Source of the DNA: Candidatus Heimdallarchaeota archaeon
GTDB lineage: Archaea; Asgardarchaeota; Heimdallarchaeia; Hodarchaeales; Hodarchaeaceae
DNA length: 64,000 bases
NCBI GenBank assembly: GCA_048881705.1
Contig: JBHLSH010000001.1
Coordinates: 140,688 to 204,687, forward strand
Direction of reading: 5' to 3'
Shown: one piece after another, positions 1-15,617 of the stretch
Numbering within the stretch: position 1 is the stretch's first letter
Layout of the letters: every line of letters starts with the position of its first letter
Notes under the pieces: generated by a model
Told to the model about the DNA's origin: nothing
The model's input: only the letters and a program-made list of their open reading frames with translations
The model's database searches: none
Made by a program: the position numbers and the translations under genes

Positions 1-369
1 TCGTAATTTCTTTAGACTAAGTTTTCGGCGGCTTATAATCAGATCTCGTATTCGCTCCCAGATAGGAGACCAATAGTATACAAAATAGCCGGTTTCCTTA
101 TCGCGCACGCGCCTATAACGAGCCAAAGACCTTTCATTCAATTTGTACAACGATTTTCTTACTTCCTTTAGGGCGATACGAGAACTCTCATTTATGGCAT
201 CATCGGGTTGGGATGAAGGAACTTCCGATTTTTCTTCGATCTCTTCATTGAGAAGGTTTACGATTTGTTCGTCAATAATTTCCTTCTGGTTTAGCAGGAT
301 ATTAAGAACACTCACAGTCACGGGATCTGTGAGTTTTAGCATTATGTCGTTTAACTGCGAAAAACGCAT
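1..369 (-). CDS. tfe: Transcription factor E alpha (TFE/TFIIE-alpha), 3' end runs off the left edge; not in the ORF track
   Basis: Manual translation from the ATG at 369 is open to base 1: MRFSQLNDIMLKLTDPVTVSVLNILLNQKEIIDEQIVNLL...IALKEVRKSLYKLNERSLARYRRVRDKETGYFVYYWSP. The (L/I)xEVRKxLYxL...YRRxRDxxTGxFxYYW winged-helix signature is typical of archaeal TFE. Confidence 0.9.
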   Translation of the reverse strand, partial: MRFSQLNDIMLKLTDPVTVSVLNILLNQKEIIDEQIVNLLNEEIEEKSEVPSSQPDDAINESSRIALKEVRKSLYKLNERSLARYRRVRDKETGYFVYYWSPIWERIRDLIISRRKLSLKKLR

Positions 370-509
370 AAATATGACCCGTGTCACTTTTTTGGAAGGA
401 AGAAAAATAAATTTTTCCAGATCCTTCTAGTTAATTCTGGTTGGCTTTTGCACCCACACAAAAAGTAACGAAAAACAGAAGAAACAGGGAGTCGTTTCAA
501 AGGCGCTTA

Positions 510-989
510 CTAGAAGTTTTCCAACTCTTTTAACGCCGCCATTATGGATTGAGATTCCGGCTTCTTAATCTTTACTGCTGGTTCCGTTAATTTTCCCATC
601 AACATGGCCAAGGCCTCTGATGTTTCCTTCATACGAACGCGTACCAGGCCTAGCTGGGCATCAGGCTCGGCTACCACGACGAGAATCCCCCTATCCCCTG
701 ATTGAGCGGTCAATATTTTACCATCAGTGAATTCAGCAAGCATGACGGACAGATTTCCTAGTGCCAGCGCACTACCTTGTTCTGCTGCACCACAGAAGAC
801 TGCTGAAGCAATTGCACCAATGCTCTCTAGATCAAATGCTCCCATTGTTTCGGAAACGAGCAAACGTGATGCACGCGCAATAGTAAGACCTGTACGATCC
901 CCGAGTAACGTCACCTTGATAGATGTGTCACTTTTAAGTAGCCGGGACAGTTCTGCGTTGATTTCATTCTTCTGCAAAACAGGATTCAC
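510..989 (-). CDS. Roadblock/LC7 (MglB-like) domain protein with C-terminal helical tail
   Basis: Roadblock pattern: VTLLGDRTGLTIA, DLESIGAIASAVF, LSVMLAEFTDGKILT, GILVVVAEPDAQLGLVRVRMKE. GTG start. Confidence 0.85.
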   Translation of the reverse strand: MNPVLQKNEINAELSRLLKSDTSIKVTLLGDRTGLTIARASRLLVSETMGAFDLESIGAIASAVFCGAAEQGSALALGNLSVMLAEFTDGKILTAQSGDRGILVVVAEPDAQLGLVRVRMKETSEALAMLMGKLTEPAVKIKKPESQSIMAALKELENF

Positions 990-1086: not shown

Positions 1087-1806
1087 CTAGAGTACAACAA
1101 TGACAATTACAAGGGCAATTACTGACCCCGCCAACAGAGCCAATAATGTACGGTTCTGGGTCAGTTTTCTCGAAATTTTCCCTAATGTTGATTGAACTTT
1201 CTGCAATTTAGAATTTACTTCGTTAATTTTTGTATCGATTTTATCGATTTTAACTCCCTGTTCATCCAAACGCCGAGCTAGGGTACCTAGATTCTGGGAT
1301 ATTTGGGTTATCTGTTCATTCATCCTATCCATAGAAGTTAAAAAGGAATTTTCAAGCATTTGGAGGCGTTCTTCTAGAGTTCCCACATTTTTAGAGGAAA
1401 TTGCTTCTCCTGGATATGCAATTTCATAAATCCGGGTACCAACACCCGTTTGTTCTTGGGGGCTCGCTCTTAAATCCATAGTTTCGATTGATTCGCTGAT
1501 TTCTCCCAACGTTCCACGAAGTAGCTGCATTTTTCGTTTTGTTTCATCAATTTCCCTAATCTTTTCATTTTGTTTTTTGATATCTCCTGGTTGAAGAAAA
1601 CGAGGCATAGATGCAAGTAATTTGGATGTCAATGAGCGTTTCTGGACCACTTGTTCTGACATTCCTCCCGAAAGATCAGCAGCCATTCCTTCCATCGATT
1701 CTAAGACAGAGTCTAAGTCATGAATGAAATTTACGAGAAGTTCTTTCTCGGTAGGTTCATCAGGTTTTTTAAACCATTTACTCAAACGTTTTGTAAAGAC
1801 CGACAC
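1087..1806 (-). CDS. Tail-anchored Q-SNARE-like protein
   Basis: C-terminal heptad region MDRMNEQITQISQNLGTLARRLDEQGVKIDKIDTKINEVNSKLQKVQSTLGKI, a basic linker (SRKLTQNR) and a terminal 20-aa hydrophobic helix TLLALLAGSVIALVIVIVVL. Confidence 0.78.
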   Translation of the reverse strand: MSVFTKRLSKWFKKPDEPTEKELLVNFIHDLDSVLESMEGMAADLSGGMSEQVVQKRSLTSKLLASMPRFLQPGDIKKQNEKIREIDETKRKMQLLRGTLGEISESIETMDLRASPQEQTGVGTRIYEIAYPGEAISSKNVGTLEERLQMLENSFLTSMDRMNEQITQISQNLGTLARRLDEQGVKIDKIDTKINEVNSKLQKVQSTLGKISRKLTQNRTLLALLAGSVIALVIVIVVL

Positions 1807-1984
1807 GTTTTTTTCGCCTGTTAAAGGTATACTCGGTAATGATTAGTTATAAATTGAGTTTACGCAGAATGTTATCCGCTCAATCTATTTATCGCTTTAT
1901 AAGAATAACTCAAAACGATATGAGACGGGAAATTTGGTATTACCAAGCAAAAGGGCCGTCTAGTAAATATGAACGAATGGTGTT

Positions 1985-3259
1985 TTAGTAAATCAGGTTG
2001 CCGTTTTCAACCACTAAACAGCCGTCCTTGAATACTTTCTCAGCTAGATTGATCCCATAATTGTAAGAAAAAAATTTGTGATTAGGAGCATTAAAAATCA
2101 CAATATCCGCTCTTTTTCCCTCCTCAAGGCTTCCTATGTCATGAGCTCGATCGATAGAATGCGCTGCATTGATAGTTGCAGCGGTGAGCGCTTCGGCTGT
2201 TGTCATTTTCATTCGAAGAACACCAAGAGTCATCATCATCTGCATAGACTCGCACATATTTGCTGCACTTACATCGGTAGCTAAAGCGACAGGTAATCCC
2301 TTATCAATTATGGCACGGGCATCCGCGTAAGTCCCTACATAGCAGAATGGAGAAGTTGGTAAGAAGATGATAATAGTACCTTGATCCTTAAGAGCTTCCA
2401 CTTCGTCCATTGGGGTGAATATCAGATGATCTACGGAGGTTACATCTCCTAAATCGGCAGCCAACTTAGCTCCCCCACTATGAGCCAACCAATCGCAGTG
2501 ATTTCTTAATTTCAATCCGTATTTTCTACCCGTTTCCAAAATCCGACGGCTTTGTTCAAGGTTGTAGTAGCCTCTTTCGCAAAATACGTCTATATATTCG
2601 GCTAGTTTTCGTTTGGAGATCTCAGGGATCCATTTTTCGACAATTTCATCGACCAAGTCGTCCACCCGCTCTTCAAATTCTGGTGGTATCCCCTGTGCCA
2701 GAAAAGTTGGAACGAGGTCAAGAGGATGGAGTTTATTCAGAGTGTTAATTATTTCCAGCTGTTTAATCTCCCCTTCGAAAGTCATTTCATATCCGCTTTT
2801 CGCTTCAATAGTGGTTGTTCCATGAATAAGCATCTTGTCTAGTATTTTGGAGGTTATTCCAATCTGTGTTTTAAAACTGGTCGCTGCAGTTTCTTTTAAC
2901 GATTTATTCATACCTCCGCCTTGAGCTTTAATCTCCAGATATGGAACACCTAATACAGCCATTTTTTCAAGTTCATCTTCTCTGGTACCAGCAAATACCA
3001 GATGGACATGAGGATCGATTAATCCTGGAGTCACAAGTTTTCCTGCGGCATCTACAACTTCAAATCCTTTATTAAGATGATTTAAAACATCCTGCGTCTT
3101 TCCGACAGCAATTATCCTCCCGTTTCTTACCGCTACGGCACCATCACGAATGATTCCCAATTCTCTCATTTTTGTTTTAACTCGAGGATCCTCACTTGAC
3201 CCGTTAAGCGTTACCAGTTCATTCGCATTAATAATAACGAAATCTGCTTCTAAAACCAT
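1985..3259 (-). CDS. hutI: Imidazolonepropionase
   Basis: PGLIDPHVHLVFAGTR, GTTTIEAKSGY, DVFCERG, SVDHL, LATD, TINAA motifs. Start moved to the ATG at 3259 (MVLEADF), which has a GGTGG RBS and removes the overlap with glnA. Confidence 0.93.
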   Translation of the reverse strand: MVLEADFVIINANELVTLNGSSEDPRVKTKMRELGIIRDGAVAVRNGRIIAVGKTQDVLNHLNKGFEVVDAAGKLVTPGLIDPHVHLVFAGTREDELEKMAVLGVPYLEIKAQGGGMNKSLKETAATSFKTQIGITSKILDKMLIHGTTTIEAKSGYEMTFEGEIKQLEIINTLNKLHPLDLVPTFLAQGIPPEFEERVDDLVDEIVEKWIPEISKRKLAEYIDVFCERGYYNLEQSRRILETGRKYGLKLRNHCDWLAHSGGAKLAADLGDVTSVDHLIFTPMDEVEALKDQGTIIIFLPTSPFCYVGTYADARAIIDKGLPVALATDVSAANMCESMQMMMTLGVLRMKMTTAEALTAATINAAHSIDRAHDIGSLEEGKRADIVIFNAPNHKFFSYNYGINLAEKVFKDGCLVVENGNLIY

Positions 3260-3288
3260 TTTTACCACCCGTATTTCTATTGATGATC

Positions 3289-4617
3289 TTAAACATCTAA
3301 ATATCTCTTTCTTTCCCACTCATGAACATAAACGTTGAAATCGTGCCATTCACGAGTTTTAACCTCGAGATATTTTTGGTAAAAATCCGAACCCAGTGAT
3401 TCTTCAAGGTCGCGATCTTTTCGAAGGTGATAAAGCGCCTCTCCGAAATTTCCTGGAAGTGTTTCAATTCCTCTTTCCGTACGCTCATTGGGACTCATTT
3501 TATAGATATCCTCTTCAACAGCAGGAGGGGGTATTAGTTTCTTTTTGATGCCATCTAGTCCTGTTGCGAGTAGGGCAGCATAAGATAAATAAAAATTGCA
3601 GGAACCATCAGTAGGACGATACTCCAGCCGCGCGGCTTTCTTTTTTCCAGGTGGGATTCTAATCAGCGTTGAACGGTTATAATTGGCCCATGAAATGTAA
3701 ACAGGGGCTTCCCATCCCGGCACAAGGCGTTTATAAGAATTAACTGAGGGATTTGTTATGCCTGTCAGACCTTTTGCATGAGCAAGAATTCCTGCCATGA
3801 ATCCTAACGCCATATCACTTAAGCCATGAGATTGAGCAGGATCCGCGAAAAGATTAACCTTGTTTTTATCATCCCGTAGATTAATATGGGTATGCAACCC
3901 TGCTCCGTATTCTCCGTGGAACGGCTTGGGCATAAAAGACGCGATGACTCCCTTTTTGGCAGCAATTATTTTTGTTAGGAATTTAACAAGATAAATAGTA
4001 TCCGCCATTCGTAATGCTTGATCGTAGGCCAAATTGAACTCGCTTTTTCCATGAGGAACCTCATGGTGATGTTTTTCAATTGCAATTCCTATTTGGCTAA
4101 AGTGTTTGGTCATTTCAAGACGAAGCTCTGCACCACGATCTGCTGGGGGAGAAGCTAGATATCCTGCTTCATCGATCAGTTTGATTTTATCGTGTTCTCT
4201 CATTTCAAACAGGAAGAACTCGATTTCACTCGCCGTATAACTGTTGACATTAGCCCCTAATGTGCCTTGAATGTTCTTCAAAACCTTTTTCAAAATAAAA
4301 CGGGGATCTAACTCGAATTGTTTGGTTGAATCTGGCTCGTACAAATCACAAACTACTCTTGCGACCCGTTGTGGAAACAAACCATGTGGAAGCACAATAA
4401 AACTACTGGGATCAGGTATCAACTTAACGTCACTCTTGCTGACATCAACCACTCCTAATGAACTACCATCCGTATGCATTCCTTCCTCAAAGATAGTCGA
4501 AAAATGCTTGACGGGAACCCAAAGCGTATGAAGGATACCCACTAGATCAGTGAATTGTAAAGCAATTTCTTCAACCTTTTCTCGTTCCATTACTTCCTCA
4601 ACTTCATTAATAGGCAT
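3289..4617 (-). CDS. glnA: Glutamine synthetase type I
   Basis: LQFTDLVG, DGSS, SEIEFFL, HHHEV, FMPKP..G..G.GLHTH, SYKRLVPGWEAP, NRSTLIRIP, RLEYR. Confidence 0.88.
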   Translation of the reverse strand: MPINEVEEVMEREKVEEIALQFTDLVGILHTLWVPVKHFSTIFEEGMHTDGSSLGVVDVSKSDVKLIPDPSSFIVLPHGLFPQRVARVVCDLYEPDSTKQFELDPRFILKKVLKNIQGTLGANVNSYTASEIEFFLFEMREHDKIKLIDEAGYLASPPADRGAELRLEMTKHFSQIGIAIEKHHHEVPHGKSEFNLAYDQALRMADTIYLVKFLTKIIAAKKGVIASFMPKPFHGEYGAGLHTHINLRDDKNKVNLFADPAQSHGLSDMALGFMAGILAHAKGLTGITNPSVNSYKRLVPGWEAPVYISWANYNRSTLIRIPPGKKKAARLEYRPTDGSCNFYLSYAALLATGLDGIKKKLIPPPAVEEDIYKMSPNERTERGIETLPGNFGEALYHLRKDRDLEESLGSDFYQKYLEVKTREWHDFNVYVHEWERKRYLDV

Positions 4618-4727
4618 GGATCAGGCTTCCTTATCCGATTTACTAACTTACAGGGATGGTTAAAACCATCTTTTAAGGGGTTATTTATGAAGCCTGACCA
4701 CGGAATGAATTCAAGGAGATATGGCAT

Positions 4728-5924
4728 TTGATATACCGAGATTTAAAACGTCAGATAATCCAAGAGGCCAGAGACTTGGAGGAGTACATCGTCCAAACAC
4801 GTCGTCATCTCCATATGCACCCAGAAACAGCATACGAAGAACATAAAACTGCAGATTATATTGAAAATGAACTAAAGAACCTTGGGTATGACACTGAAAG
4901 AACTGCGGGTACTGGGATCCTCGGAATCCTTAATAATGATTCTCAAGGAAAAACTGTGGCCTTACGGGCTGATATCGACGCGTTAAATATTACTGAGGAG
5001 AATGATATCCCATACAGAAGTAAAGTACCTGGAAAGATGCATGCCTGTGGACATGATGCTCATACAGCGATGTTATTAGGTGCGGCCAAAATTCTTTTCA
5101 AGTACCGAAAGGTTTTATCAGGTCCTCTGAAGCTGATATTTCAACCTGGGGAAGAAGGCAAAGCTGGGGCAAAGAAAATTGTAGAAGAGGGGCAGCTTGA
5201 CAATGTGGACACGATTTTTGGTCTTCATGTCTGGCAAGCATCATCATCGGGTGAAATAGCAACTGGGGCGGACGGGGCTTTATTTGCTTCCTCAGACCGT
5301 TTCACAATTAGAATTTCTGGGATCGGGGGACATGCCGCAATGCCTCATGAAACTGTGGATCCGATTCCTGTACTTTTCGATATATACAATGCACTCCAAA
5401 AGGTAATTTCACGTGAGATAGATCCCTTTGAACCAGTTGTGTTAACCATGCCGCGGATCGTGGGGAGTAGTGCCCACAATATAATCCCATCGGTTGGGAT
5501 CCTAAATGGAACGCTTCGAACACTAAATCCCAGGGTTCGCTCACGTATCTTGGATCGCCTTCAGGAGGTGGTCGTTGGATATTCACGAGCGTGGCGTTGC
5601 AAGGGATCAGTCAATATTGATCCCCTAGGCTATCCGGCCTTGATCAATGACAAAGATACCACAAAGAAGATTATTACGATACTCCATGATCTAGATGAAG
5701 TAAAACCAGCACCCCCGAGTATGATTGGCGAGGATTTCGGATTTTATTTACAAAGAACCAAAGGAGTTTTTTTCACTCTAGGGATCTACAATAAAGAAAA
5801 AGGGATAATTTATCCACACCATCATCCTCAATTTCAGGTAGACGAGTCGGTACTTTGGAAAGGAACCGCGATCTATGCCATTTCGGGCCTCTATTATTAT
5901 TTCAGCTCGGATTTTGAACCATGA
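4728..5924 (+). CDS. M20D family amidohydrolase
   Basis: RRHLHMHPE, LRADIDAL, MHACGHDAH, FQPGEE, GIGGHAA, GEDF, HHPQF. Confidence 0.9.
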   Translation: MIYRDLKRQIIQEARDLEEYIVQTRRHLHMHPETAYEEHKTADYIENELKNLGYDTERTAGTGILGILNNDSQGKTVALRADIDALNITEENDIPYRSKVPGKMHACGHDAHTAMLLGAAKILFKYRKVLSGPLKLIFQPGEEGKAGAKKIVEEGQLDNVDTIFGLHVWQASSSGEIATGADGALFASSDRFTIRISGIGGHAAMPHETVDPIPVLFDIYNALQKVISREIDPFEPVVLTMPRIVGSSAHNIIPSVGILNGTLRTLNPRVRSRILDRLQEVVVGYSRAWRCKGSVNIDPLGYPALINDKDTTKKIITILHDLDEVKPAPPSMIGEDFGFYLQRTKGVFFTLGIYNKEKGIIYPHHHPQFQVDESVLWKGTAIYAISGLYYYFSSDFEP

Positions 5925-5943
5925 AATCTGGTTGGATTTTTAT

Positions 5944-7434
5944 CTACAGCTTTCGTTTTCGGATCAGTTGAACACATTTGGAAATGTCTGGGGCCAATTC
6001 TCGGTCATGTATTAAAGAGGAGACTACCTCACGGATTGTGGAGTGGGTTTTCTCAGTTTTTGGTGCAAGAATGTCTTTATTTTCGGCTAAATCTATGGCT
6101 TGTGCCGCGCATAGTAATTCAATGGCCAGGATGTTGTGCAAATTTTGAATTATTTTTCGAGTTTTTGACGCTGCGGATGTACCCATAGAAGAAAAATCTT
6201 CTTGGTTTGCAGAAACTGGAATTGAATCAACAGAGGCAGGAGACGCGAGATGGTTGTTTTCAGCAACCAATGAGGCGGCAGTATATTGGGCGATCATTAA
6301 ACCAGAATTAGGCCCCGAAGTAGGGGCGAGAAAGGCAGGCAAACCACTAAGACTTGGATTTAACAAGCGTTCAACCCGTCGTTCTGAGATCGTTCCAATC
6401 CCTGTCATGGCTAGCCCCAAGAAATCCATTGCGATCGCAACAGGATGACCATGAAAATTTCCTCCAGAATAAATCTGATCGACCGAGAAAATCAGGGGAT
6501 TATCAGTAGAAGAGTTCATTTCCACCTCTACCACGTTTTCGGTATATCGAACTGCATCTAAGATAGCTCCGTGGACTGCTGGAACACAACGCAAGGAATA
6601 AGCATCTTGGTGAGGTATCTGATGCCGAACGCTCTTACTTCCATCCAAAATATCCAATATTTCCTTCGCTACATCTATCTGACCAGGATGTGGGCGAGCT
6701 TGATGTATCAACGGATTTAAAGCATCAATATTGGCCCTGTGCACCTCCATACTCATCGCAGTTGCTAGATTAGCGATCCTGATTAGATATTTTGCGTCTG
6801 CAACTGCTAATGCGGCGATCGCTGTCATTGCTTGTGTTCCATTGAGTAAGGCTAGTCCATCTTTGGCTCCCAATCGAAGGGAGGTAAGCCCTACCTTTTT
6901 CAGAGCTGCTCTACCAGTAATCCGTTGGCCACCAAAATCCACCCAACCTTTACCGATCAAAACCTGTGATAGATGTGCCAGCGGCGCAAGATCCCCACTC
7001 GCTCCAAGACTTCCCTGAGAGGGAACTACGGGGACAATATCGTGGTTTAATAGATCGACAAGGAGCTCGACCACTTCCAATCGTACCCCAGAATGTCCAC
7101 GCACAAGTTTATTGATTTGTAATACCATCATTCCCCTAACTACTTCTAAGGGTAGTTCCAACCCTACCCCTGCGGAGTGACTAAGAACAAGGTTTTCTTG
7201 AAGTTGATATACATCATCAGAAGACACCGGTACTTCCTGGAGATGTCCGAATCCCGTTGTAACACCATAAATTCGTCTATTCTGCTTCAAAACAGTTTGA
7301 ACGATATTTGCGGCCTGTTCTATTCTTGAAACAACCTCGGACGCTATTTCTACTGCATATTTGTCTCGTGTTATCAAAATTATATCTGAAATAGTAAGAG
7401 ATTCTCCATCTAATGTAACGACTGGCTTTTCCAT
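5944..7434 (-). CDS. hutH: Histidine ammonia-lyase
   Basis: IYGVTTGFG, MIO-forming GASGDLAPLAH, LLNGTQ, QDAYSLRC, GGNFHG, SANQED. Confidence 0.95.
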   Translation of the reverse strand: MEKPVVTLDGESLTISDIILITRDKYAVEIASEVVSRIEQAANIVQTVLKQNRRIYGVTTGFGHLQEVPVSSDDVYQLQENLVLSHSAGVGLELPLEVVRGMMVLQINKLVRGHSGVRLEVVELLVDLLNHDIVPVVPSQGSLGASGDLAPLAHLSQVLIGKGWVDFGGQRITGRAALKKVGLTSLRLGAKDGLALLNGTQAMTAIAALAVADAKYLIRIANLATAMSMEVHRANIDALNPLIHQARPHPGQIDVAKEILDILDGSKSVRHQIPHQDAYSLRCVPAVHGAILDAVRYTENVVEVEMNSSTDNPLIFSVDQIYSGGNFHGHPVAIAMDFLGLAMTGIGTISERRVERLLNPSLSGLPAFLAPTSGPNSGLMIAQYTAASLVAENNHLASPASVDSIPVSANQEDFSSMGTSAASKTRKIIQNLHNILAIELLCAAQAIDLAENKDILAPKTEKTHSTIREVVSSLIHDRELAPDISKCVQLIRKRKL

Positions 7435-13840: not shown

Positions 13841-14818
13841 ATGAGTGAAGGCAAACGCATGAAATTGATAGAACAACAGCAGCAAGATAAGCAGCGATTG
13901 AAAGATATTCAAACACAACTGAACGCACTGAAAACTAAACTTTTAGCATTGGAAACTGAAAAGGAACGGATTGAACAGCAAATCGCAGGCCGTGAACAAG
14001 AAATCAGGGACCAAGCCAACTCTGAGAGTGATATAAGTCAAATTCAGCTACAAGAAGAAGGTCAATTGGGCATTCTAAAGGAAATTTGGTTTTTCCCCTC
14101 CTGGAATCAATTGATTGATACGAATTTTAAGGGATTTTATTTAAATCAGCCTGTAATGGAATTAAAAAGAGATTCCGTCTTGTTAATCCCGGATATTACT
14201 CTCACAGGAACTGACGAAACAACTGGTGAAGCTTTTATCCTTGTTGTAGGTGTTGGTGTTTATTATGCTCAATTCTCTATCTCTTTGGGAAAAATCATTA
14301 CAGATTTTCGTGAAATCTGCGGGATTGTATTACCCACTGAAGCTTTTATTCGAGCTCAGGATCAAGCCAGCTCGACAATCAACTCTCAAAAATTAGAAAT
14401 GACAGAGTACATGACTAAGATTCCGTTTACTTTTCTTTTAGAACGAGAAACAACTCAGATGTATATGCGAGGTGTTGTAACGAGGAATATAATGCATCCA
14501 AATAAGGAAATCTTTGATCTATTAGAAAATTTGTGTAAATCAAAAACGACACTTTCAGAGGAAGACGGCTTTAAGATTTTATCAGGGGGGTTATCTGCAG
14601 AACATTCAATCTACAAGAACGAATTATTAACAGAAAAACAAATACCTGAGTACAGTCGAATTACTGCGGGGTTAAAAAACGTTAAACCAACGTTAGGAAA
14701 GATTATGAGTACCTTACAGTTAGAAGAAATGAGGGCTCAGATCTTTAAGAATATAAAGCAAATCAAACACGATTATACCACTATTGGGCTTCCCCGATTA
14801 CGCGATTGGATGCCGTAG
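13841..14818 (+). CDS. Hypothetical protein with N-terminal coiled coil
   Basis: 325-aa ATG ORF. Residues ~5-60 are a Q/E/K-rich heptad stretch, followed by a globular domain I do not recognise. Converges on the GTPase gene. Confidence 0.72.
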   Translation: MSEGKRMKLIEQQQQDKQRLKDIQTQLNALKTKLLALETEKERIEQQIAGREQEIRDQANSESDISQIQLQEEGQLGILKEIWFFPSWNQLIDTNFKGFYLNQPVMELKRDSVLLIPDITLTGTDETTGEAFILVVGVGVYYAQFSISLGKIITDFREICGIVLPTEAFIRAQDQASSTINSQKLEMTEYMTKIPFTFLLERETTQMYMRGVVTRNIMHPNKEIFDLLENLCKSKTTLSEEDGFKILSGGLSAEHSIYKNELLTEKQIPEYSRITAGLKNVKPTLGKIMSTLQLEEMRAQIFKNIKQIKHDYTTIGLPRLRDWMP

Positions 14819-14915: not shown

Positions 14916-15617
14916 TCAGTTTTTACTAAGTTCGGCCACCAGGATATCCCGAATGACTTGCTGGATGGGCATGATGATTCGTTGTACTGGCTGAGGTCGA
15001 GATTTCGGGTTCCAGTTTCCACTACTCCATGTTTCCTTTAATGCCTGTAAAGCCTCCAAACATGAAACTTCATGCACACTGGCAAAAGTGTCTCGTAACT
15101 TGTCCGAGACCCCTGCTTCCACCATCAAACGCCCAACATCTGCTGCCGAAATACGTGTGCCAACGGGTAAATCCATCTTATTTAGCATTATCTGCAATTT
15201 GACTTCTCCATTGAGGAGTTTATCTTCTAAGATCTCAAACAATTCCGTAAGCGAAGTTTTGTTCTCCTCCCACCGCGCAGATTCTGAATCCAACACGACT
15301 ATGATGCCATGAAGGCCATTCACAACGATCTTACGCATGCTTTTGAAACGATCTTGTCCAGGAGTCGTAAAGAGGTGATATTTAAATTCTCTTCCCGTAC
15401 CTGTACCCAAACCGAAGGTAGCCTGATCGAATCCGATGGTACGCTCCGTAGCCTTGTCTTCAAGTTTGAGGAAATTATAGACATTCTCGGGATCTTCCCG
15501 TTTTTTTATGGCGTGGAAAAGCGAGAGCGCCGTGGTCTTCCCAGCCATCGTTGCACCCCAAAAGACGATCTTAATTCCCTGTTTGCTCTCTTCAAAGACA
15601 ACCTCTTCTTGGCTCAA
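14916..15617 (-). CDS. Small GTPase, MglA-like (Ras superfamily)
   Basis: G1 GATMAGKT, switch I ERTIGFD, G3 FTTPGQ (MglA-type, lacks the DxxG Asp), GIIVVLDS, G4 NKMD. Confidence 0.87.
   Translation of the reverse strand: MSQEEVVFEESKQGIKIVFWGATMAGKTTALSLFHAIKKREDPENVYNFLKLEDKATERTIGFDQATFGLGTGTGREFKYHLFTTPGQDRFKSMRKIVVNGLHGIIVVLDSESARWEENKTSLTELFEILEDKLLNGEVKLQIMLNKMDLPVGTRISAADVGRLMVEAGVSDKLRDTFASVHEVSCLEALQALKETWSSGNWNPKSRPQPVQRIIMPIQQVIRDILVAELSKN

Follow-up and report, generated by a model that had tools for sequence, protein, structure and literature searches.

The window analysed here is a stretch of 64,000 nucleotides of contig JBHLSH010000001.1, from the Candidatus Heimdallarchaeota archaeon assembly GCA_048881705.1, and its reverse strand carries near the beginning a gene for a SNARE-like protein of 239 residues. 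We read this gene as a member of the prototypic SNARE family of Heimdallarchaeia, more precisely as an orthologue of the published protein HPS1 in its Hodarchaeaceae form, acting through a tail-anchored homotetramer, and we assign this reading a probability of roughly 0.85. The evidence supports a gene product that is a tail-anchored, Q-type SNARE-like protein of a class already described in Heimdallarchaeia. A sequence-only reading that preceded this analysis had described the class as known, and the gene does fall in the HPS1/HPS2 family, within its 239-residue type. The SNARE is thus real, correctly read and already known: it is another orthologue of a published protein. Its parts, all on the reverse strand, are as follows.

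1087..1806 (-): whole coding sequence of the SNARE-like protein, 239 residues plus stop, with a GTG start; matched by the family profile over residues 1-239 (E 3.4e-129)
1771..1803 (-): N-terminal basic amphipathic helix, residues 2-12; a low-confidence helix in AlphaFold2 (AF2), with W11 invariant and K10, K13 and K14 nearly invariant
1480..1749 (-): N-terminal helical hairpin, residues 20-109, from the AF2 model of residues 1-142; helices 20-54 and 74-109 are joined via a short helix, 59-65, and P68 is invariant
1405..1428 (-): YE..YPGE, residues 127-134, a motif of the linker that joins the N-terminal domain to the SNARE motif; invariant in 33 homologues
1159..1359 (-): SNARE motif, residues 150-216, equal to the HPS1 segment that was expressed and crystallised; its 16 layers span residues 159-211 (nucleotides 1174-1332)
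1258..1260 (-): 0-layer glutamine Q183, in LDEQG; invariant in 33 homologues and forming the four-glutamine central layer in the HPS1 crystal
1150..1173 (-): basic juxtamembrane linker, residues 212-219 (SRKLTQNR), read from the sequence; K214, L215, T216, Q217 and N218 are invariant
1090..1149 (-): C-terminal transmembrane anchor, residues 220-239, up to the stop codon, read from the sequence; AF2 places a helix at 219-238

The GTG start is matched by homologues which begin with ATG at the identical residue. The order of domains, from a helical N-terminal region through a SNARE motif of about 60 residues and a short linker to a terminal transmembrane helix, matches that of the prototypic SNARE family. 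A basic linker followed by a terminal helix without luminal tail had been claimed from the letters, and both were recovered. The hydrophobic stretch 220-239 ends at the stop codon, and the protein is therefore tail-anchored, with no luminal extension.

The central feature is the register of the SNARE motif. Layers -7 to -1 are occupied by M159, M162, I166, I169, L173, L176 and L180, and layers +1 to +8 by I187, I190, I194, V197, L201, V204, L208 and I211. A polar 0-layer, Q183, stands amid these 15 hydrophobic M/I/L/V layers at the canonical 3/4 spacing, which is the pattern expected of a SNARE. Placing the layer offsets afresh reproduced, letter by letter, the 16-layer register around Q183 that the sequence-only reading had proposed. 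The pattern was also sought in six frames throughout the assembly (3.96 Mb, 155 contigs), in 4,856 open frames of at least 100 residues comprising 1.37 million residues. All 15 layers (I/L/M/V/F) round a central Q or R were found at a single site genome-wide, the window SNARE gene; the sole site with 14 of 15 lies within a polytopic membrane protein. Since only one complete site exists in the genome, the 16-layer pattern exceeds chance.

Conservation follows the same register. Across 33 homologues of 55-94% identity, each layer is I, L, M or V and Q183 is invariant. In 18 sequences spanning a wider range, the most distant of them 26% identical, the layers depart from this pattern only in a single Thr at +3 and in Ala at +6, which occurs six times; the 0-layer is Gln in 15 of 18 and His in the remaining 3. 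These distant His members (L032:577-1287, L035:3-710 and L036:1477-2193) have EHG in place of EQG and keep their remaining layers. Outside the motif, Y127, E128, P132, G133 and E134 of YE..YPGE are invariant in the 33 homologues. YE..YPGE sits in a linker that is otherwise variable and modelled with low confidence, and P132 and G133 remain at least 90% conserved even at 26% identity.

Membership of a known family was assessed with a homologue search that took in 5.8 billion proteins. It returned 67 homologues with identities of 54-94% and E-values from 1e-64 to 1e-142; almost all have 239 residues and derive from metagenome-assembled genomes (MAGs) of Hodarchaeales or Heimdallarchaeota. Their public labels are either 'hypothetical protein' or, where automatic pipelines supplied a name, 'archaellum component FlaC', 'chromosome segregation ATPase' or 'RecN'. 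Names such as FlaC or RecN, given by the Joint Genome Institute (JGI), are coiled-coil artefacts. The nearest public homologue, MFW9854039.1 (94% identity), is labelled 'Candidatus Thorarchaeota archaeon', and others are labelled 'Promethearchaeota'; these are probably mislabelled MAGs, the family being otherwise confined to Heimdallarchaeia.

The family was discovered by Neveu et al. under the name 'Heimdallarchaeota prototypic SNAREs' (2019/2020; bioRxiv 10.1101/810531). That study expressed HPS1 (PWI47941.1, from Ca. Heimdallarchaeota archaeon B3-JM-08) as residues 150-216, described HPS2 (OLS22354.1, from Heimdallarchaeota LC_2), and demonstrated complexes of HPS proteins with neuronal syntaxin-1, SNAP-25 and synaptobrevin. 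Bentahar et al. (October 2026, bioRxiv 10.64898/2026.10.19.760048) found HPS1 to be helical, unfolding only above 90 C, and to be a 34-kDa tetramer by size-exclusion chromatography with multi-angle light scattering, making use of an F155W mutant. Their crystal structure, at 2.4 A, shows a homotetramer in which four parallel helices are bundled in 16 layers, the central one consisting of four Q183 residues. The same authors report that full-length HPS1 targets the endoplasmic reticulum in human cells, that murine NSF fails to disassemble the HPS1 complex, and that the prototypic SNARE is usually encoded by one gene per genome, with rare duplications. The literature places prototypic SNAREs as a clade of their own outside Qa, Qb, Qc and R, and reports for them scores above noise with class-specific hidden Markov models (HMMs; Tracey database) as well as a phylogeny joining them to the eukaryotic SNAREs.

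The window protein shares the published numbering of HPS1: the phenylalanine of the F155W mutant is F155, the 0-layer is Q183, and the construct boundaries 150-216 enclose the motif. Among the aligned sequences, F155 and Q183 occur together only in the 239-residue Hodarchaeaceae type, the 0-layer lying at 179-187 in other clades. Four copies of residues 150-216 have a mass of 30.6 kDa, in agreement with the 34 kDa published for the tagged HPS1 fragment. The HPS1 accession was not seen in an exact-sequence cluster look-up of ten homologues. We read the window gene as the HPS1 orthologue because numbering, length, family and taxon all match.

A four-copy model of residues 150-216, built with the author's own alignment and compared with 3 controls, supports a stable parallel homotetrameric four-helix bundle for the window motif. 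It scored 0.83 against 0.00 for the best control; in the calibration, which was not made on four copies, 20 of 30 proteins solved as one-chain pairs attained this mark, as did 1 of 23 single-chain structures. Contacts agreed between runs to at least 98%, the partner predicted local distance difference test (pLDDT) value was at least 87, and the interface includes all 16 layer residues. The contacts of lowest error pair the same residue of different copies (187-187, 190-190, 194-194, 197-197, 201-201 and 204-204), and the modelled bundle is therefore parallel and in register. The predictor may have memorised eukaryotic SNARE bundles of solved structure, and the model speaks for likeness rather than for binding.

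The relation to eukaryotic SNAREs, as judged by sequence, is consistent but weak. SNARE is the top Pfam family by hmmscan (E 8e-5, 23.0 bits against a cut-off of 26.8, residues 187-237 on profile positions 3-53). PF12352 (V-SNARE_C) gives 21-22 bits (cut-off 27.1) and PF00957 (synaptobrevin) 17.1 (cut-off 26.4). The LDEQG of the window protein is placed by phmmer onto the 0-layer LDEQG of the SNAP-25 N-terminal motif, with E of about 0.02-0.05. The close resemblance to the SNAP-25 Qb helix noted from the sequence therefore survives as an aligned motif of weak E-value, but not as Qb membership, the Pfam SNARE, V-SNARE_C and synaptobrevin scores being similar and all below threshold. Judged by these Pfam proxies, which give no clear preference, the protein appears to be neither Qb (SNAP-25-like) nor a member of any other eukaryotic SNARE class. 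Searched as a single sequence against a copy of the PDB which does not yet include the HPS1 crystal, it found no close relative (best E 0.0055). The family profile reached the syntaxin-6 chain 2nps_D as its best natural match (E 4.5e-5), followed by SNAP-25, SNAP-29, syntaxin-7 and syntaxin-1A, in a list which also mixes in designed bundles, reovirus sigma-1 and chemoreceptors. Chain 2nps_D served for molecular replacement in the HPS1 structure (bioRxiv 10.64898/2026.10.19.760048). Against 1.84 billion representatives, the profile found 19 proteins below 1e-30, which are the family itself, and beyond them mostly long coiled coils.

Scores of this kind leave room for an immediate concern, namely that the protein is a generic tail-anchored coiled coil, similar to XhlA, FlaC or a holin, whose SNARE likeness reflects convergent heptad periodicity. 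A Pfam SNARE score below the gathering threshold with coiled-coil families nearly equal to it favours this view, as do the FlaC, chromosome segregation ATPase and RecN names given to homologues by public pipelines. We selected, by length and span, 10 short profile matches which reach the C-terminal, membrane-anchor end of the profile. Seven of them fit Pfam SNARE-family models (SNARE, V-SNARE, V-SNARE_C, Use1), six above cut-off, and the other three are XhlA- or DUF7310-like, which again lends the coiled-coil view something. The comparison of SNARE HMMs with generic tail-anchored coiled coils, put forward with the original observation as its check, thus places SNARE first, but on sequence alone only by a narrow margin and below threshold. 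Other observations are difficult to reconcile with a generic coiled coil. Firstly, the 16-layer length with one central polar residue is unique in the genome and is kept down to 26% identity. Secondly, LDEQG aligns to the SNAP-25 0-layer, the natural PDB matches are headed by syntaxin-6, and XhlA lies outside the top 25 Pfam families for the window protein. Thirdly, the orthologue assembles into four-helix bundles like those of SNAREs and also enters mixed complexes with the neuronal proteins of that family. We consider convergence very improbable. What decides for a SNARE is the biochemical and structural work published on the orthologue, rather than the sequence scores.

The copy number in the genome agrees with a protein that assembles with itself. 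Searched with the family profile, the genome, which is 90.9% complete, yields a single copy. In a six-frame genome search with the Pfam SNARE model (PF05739), the window gene was best at 26.4 bits, being reported as attaining the 26.8 cut-off together with its neighbours, and the next match had 13.9 bits. The synaptobrevin and V-SNARE_C models match only the window gene, both below cut-off, while genome searches with syntaxin (PF00804) and longin (PF13774) returned only noise, at the level seen in control bacteria, PF00804 having no match on the window gene. No second SNARE, R-SNARE, syntaxin, synaptobrevin or longin was found above cut-off in the assembly. The genome-wide hunt for R-SNARE partners that had been suggested for this protein therefore yielded none, and the orthologue self-assembles. 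With no partner above cut-off and a homotetrameric orthologue, the window protein does not present itself as part of a QabcR heterotetramer.

Within the class, 37 of 83 genomes carry a family match by profile search. By taxonomic family, matches occur in 19/21 genomes of f1, 2/2 of f2, 1/1 of f3, 3/3 of f5 and 11/12 of f6. Among 301 genomes of the phylum, all 36 matching genomes, that of the window included, belong to these five families, and none of the 224 sampled genomes outside the class has a match. In the two genomes of the same genus without a SNARE match, the orthologue of the adjacent Roadblock gene is matched only in part or sits at, or very close to, the end of a contig, on account of which we attribute the missing SNARE genes to assembly breaks, where they were probably lost. 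Identity between SNARE proteins follows taxonomy, at 61-94% within the genus, 33-36% to the sister family and 27-32% to other families. One sister-family genome, L033 (G069:C473), has a tandem SNARE duplicate at 719-1438 and 1498-2211 (-), with its Roadblock orthologue on another contig; this agrees with the published remark on rare duplications.

A patchy distribution within the class, together with the attribution in the literature of Legionellales SNARE genes to eukaryotic donors, might suggest that the gene was likewise acquired laterally from a eukaryote and is no archaeal precursor. The gene is nevertheless single-copy in five families of the class with a divergence that tracks taxonomy, it fits no eukaryotic SNARE class, and its conserved local gene order is archaeal. 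We consider lateral acquisition very improbable.

If the window protein acts as its orthologue suggests, a plausible sequence of events may be outlined. The protein would be inserted post-translationally into a membrane through its C-terminal anchor. A Get3/ArsA-type ATPase homologue is present in the genome (E 1.2e-84), the same family being found above cut-off in 13 of 14 control genomes. In the crystal of the orthologue, and as modelled here, the motif at about residues 150-216 pairs with three identical copies in a parallel, in-register bundle of 15 hydrophobic layers about a four-Gln183 centre, which the short conserved basic linker couples directly to the membrane anchor. Where copies reside in two apposed membranes, zippering from N to C terminus could draw these together, resulting in tethering and possibly fusion. 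The very stable bundle might be recycled by an AAA ATPase other than NSF, such as Cdc48. A part in regulating or orienting this assembly is probable for the N-terminal hairpin and for the YE..YPGE linker. Such a protein may represent a one-gene forerunner of the eukaryotic QabcR machine.

Several points weigh against this reading, in its identification as well as in its mechanism. The orthology to HPS1 is based on numbering, length, family and taxon rather than on a direct alignment. The Pfam SNARE score of 23.0 bits is barely ahead of the generic coiled-coil families Snapin_Pallidin, DUF7310 and Dynamitin, and the matches of the family profile include, in the hundreds, designed helical bundles as well as long coiled coils unrelated to the family. 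No prototypic SNARE match was found in two families of the class (f4, 0 of 31 genomes; f7, 0 of 12). Membrane fusion by Heimdall SNAREs has not been reported, and murine NSF leaves the complex intact (bioRxiv 10.64898/2026.10.19.760048). A homotetramer has no built-in preference for trans over cis assembly. Lastly, a cultivated Heimdallarchaeaceae archaeon with internal membrane compartments has been reported without clear SNARE homologues, and such compartments therefore do not require a prototypic SNARE.

These last considerations are also those from which a different cellular role may be argued, in which a true HPS-family member forms its bundle in cis and serves as a membrane-anchored scaffold, tether or bending element and not as a fusogen. 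Four identical helices without intrinsic trans preference, an extremely stable and NSF-resistant complex, and an Asgard archaeon which has compartments and no reported SNAREs are all compatible with this role; the authors who described the family leave tethering or bending open, and these genomes are not known to encode an SM protein, a tethering complex or a second SNARE. On the other hand, eukaryotic fusion works with just this geometry, a parallel bundle of 16 layers in register beside an anchor, and the short conserved linker joins the bundle rigidly to the transmembrane helix. We regard the cis scaffold as a possibility deserving attention, albeit the less likely outcome; it differs from the tail-anchored, trans-zippering homotetramer only in cellular role.

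The N-terminal region was modelled separately. The full-length AF2 model has a pLDDT of 62 and breaks the SNARE helix at 183-189, which we attribute to a single chain of an oligomer having been folded on its own. Residues 1-142 alone give a pLDDT of 76 overall and 82-91 over residues 21-100, with predicted helices at 2-12, 20-54, 59-65 and 74-109 and a weaker one at 116-130; the part modelled with confidence is a pair of antiparallel helices, each of 35 residues, arranged as a hairpin. The proposal that the first ~110 residues are helical and might be an Habc-like bundle is accordingly upheld in its first half (hairpin 20-109) but not confirmed in its second, the third helix at 116-130 being short and of low confidence. 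On these models, an Habc-like three-helix bundle is possible, and both HPS papers likewise only predict such a domain (bioRxiv 10.1101/810531; bioRxiv 10.64898/2026.10.19.760048). Comparing the full-length model with the PDB, Foldseek found nothing at E <=0.001, its top rows being designed helical bundles and chlamydial IncA (E 0.35). With VIA-align, the N-terminal model was compared with 48,161 chains, and no syntaxin or Vti1 Habc domain appeared among the 50 best rows. The best of these were generic hairpins (CHMP4B, Snf7, SMC arms, designed hairpins) with Z of 8.4-10.1, which is below the meaningful level for helical proteins.

The gene has a conserved downstream neighbourhood, while the region directly upstream of it in the window (1985-7434) holds what appear, from their translations, to be histidine-utilisation genes.

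510..989 (-): Roadblock/LC7 gene, co-oriented and 97 nucleotides downstream of the SNARE gene; Pfam Robl_LC7, E 1.2e-7, above cut-off
1-387 (-): TFIIE-alpha gene, following the Roadblock gene and cut by the window end
1985-3319: HutI-like amidohydrolase, as read from the translation
3289-4617: glutamine-synthetase-like gene, as read from the translation, with a 31-nucleotide overlap with the HutI-like gene
4728-5924: M20-type amidohydrolase, as read from the translation
5944-7434: HutH-like ammonia-lyase, as read from the translation

Each of the 17 same-genus loci that extend far enough has the order SNARE-Roadblock-TFIIE-alpha, and the SNARE-Roadblock pair recurs in one sister-family genome, whose SNARE proteins are 36% identical. 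The gene upstream of the SNARE gene varies in identity and orientation between loci. The Roadblock orthologue (52-99% identity) is confined to two Hodarchaeales families, only paralogues of ~30-40% identity being found elsewhere. It is better conserved (80-88%) than the SNARE (61-78%). The spacer of 97 nucleotides between the two genes contains TTTAAA. A scan of 300-2100 for sigma-70 promoters and intrinsic terminators, which was not built for archaea, found sites no commoner than in shuffles. Neither HPS paper mentions the gene neighbours, and our literature search found no report of SNARE-Roadblock linkage in Hodarchaeales. This Hodarchaeales-only Roadblock/LC7 paralogue could conceivably be a dedicated partner or switch of the SNARE, corresponding perhaps, as a free-standing protein, to the eukaryotic trafficking regulators with a longin/roadblock fold; we think this improbable. 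If true, the two genes would form a minimal SNARE-plus-regulator module.

Elsewhere, the neighbours differ. In clades other than Hodarchaeales, a protein of ~346 residues (beginning MKKLDIE...) adjoins the SNARE gene in 5 of 8 loci, usually in divergent orientation (L034, L036, L038, L039 and L041; e.g. L039:208-1248, -). It matched no Pfam family and no PDB relative. The window genome has two paralogues of it, at C22:10946-11920 and at 13841-14818 of the window. The latter (+) has an N-terminal coiled coil and converges on 14916-15617 (-), a gene for a small-GTPase-like protein of 233 residues (GATMAGKTT...TPGQDRF...NKMD). A Ras/Rab-like small GTPase (L037:192-719, +; Pfam Ras, E 5.6e-37) was seen in one Heimdall-clade genome, ~0.8 kb downstream of the SNARE gene and past a HAD hydrolase gene.

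The Heimdall SNARE family bears on the origin of endomembranes. To our knowledge, the Heimdall SNAREs stand alone among archaeal proteins as candidates from which the eukaryotic membrane-fusion machine may descend. The window copy itself brings no new kind of evidence, its orthologue having already been expressed, crystallised and tested with neuronal SNAREs. The practical value is small but real. It provides a clean Hodarchaeaceae sequence for a protein whose public records still read 'hypothetical' or 'FlaC/RecN', and it puts on record that the Roadblock neighbour is conserved and that YE..YPGE in the linker is invariant, points which the two HPS papers leave undiscussed. The window protein is a member of the Heimdall prototypic SNARE family, appears to belong to no eukaryotic class and would work like a Q-SNARE.

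Known systems may be ordered by their distance from this protein. Coiled coils of the XhlA, FlaC and DUF7310 type resemble it as short helical coiled coils, some with a C-terminal transmembrane helix and with comparably weak Pfam scores. They differ in having no fixed 16-layer motif with a single central polar layer and no SNARE-type bundles or SNARE binding in evidence.

The eukaryotic proteins closest to it by sequence are Q-SNAREs, namely syntaxin-6 (Qc, PDB 2NPS chain D) and the SNAP-25 N-terminal motif (Qb). Common to these and the window protein are the 16-layer register, a glutamine in layer 0, LDEQG, a tail anchor after a short basic linker and, as modelled for the window protein, a parallel four-helix bundle. 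The eukaryotic system is a QabcR heterotetramer with a 3Q:1R layer, recycled by NSF/SNAP and controlled by SM proteins, whereas the prototypic system consists of a single gene whose product forms a homotetramer with a 4Q layer, without NSF sensitivity; no partner SNAREs were found in the genome, and the window protein scores below the Pfam cut-offs and has neither a class assignment nor a confirmed Habc domain.

HPS2 and the SNARE-like proteins of the Heimdall and Kari clades are nearer still, sharing the family, domain order and conserved layers and being joined by the profile at E 1e-56 to 1e-91. They differ in identity (26-32%), in length (235-245 residues), in the His 0-layer of some, and in having the 346-residue neighbour in place of Roadblock. 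Closest of all is HPS1. The two have in common the N-terminal helices, the 16-layer motif at 150-216, F155 and Q183, the short basic linker, the terminal transmembrane helix, the lineage and a single gene per genome, and the modelled homotetramer of the window protein is parallel and in register, as is the HPS1 crystal. The window protein comes from another MAG, and proteins of the 239-residue type are 59-94% identical to it; nothing functional sets it apart from HPS1.

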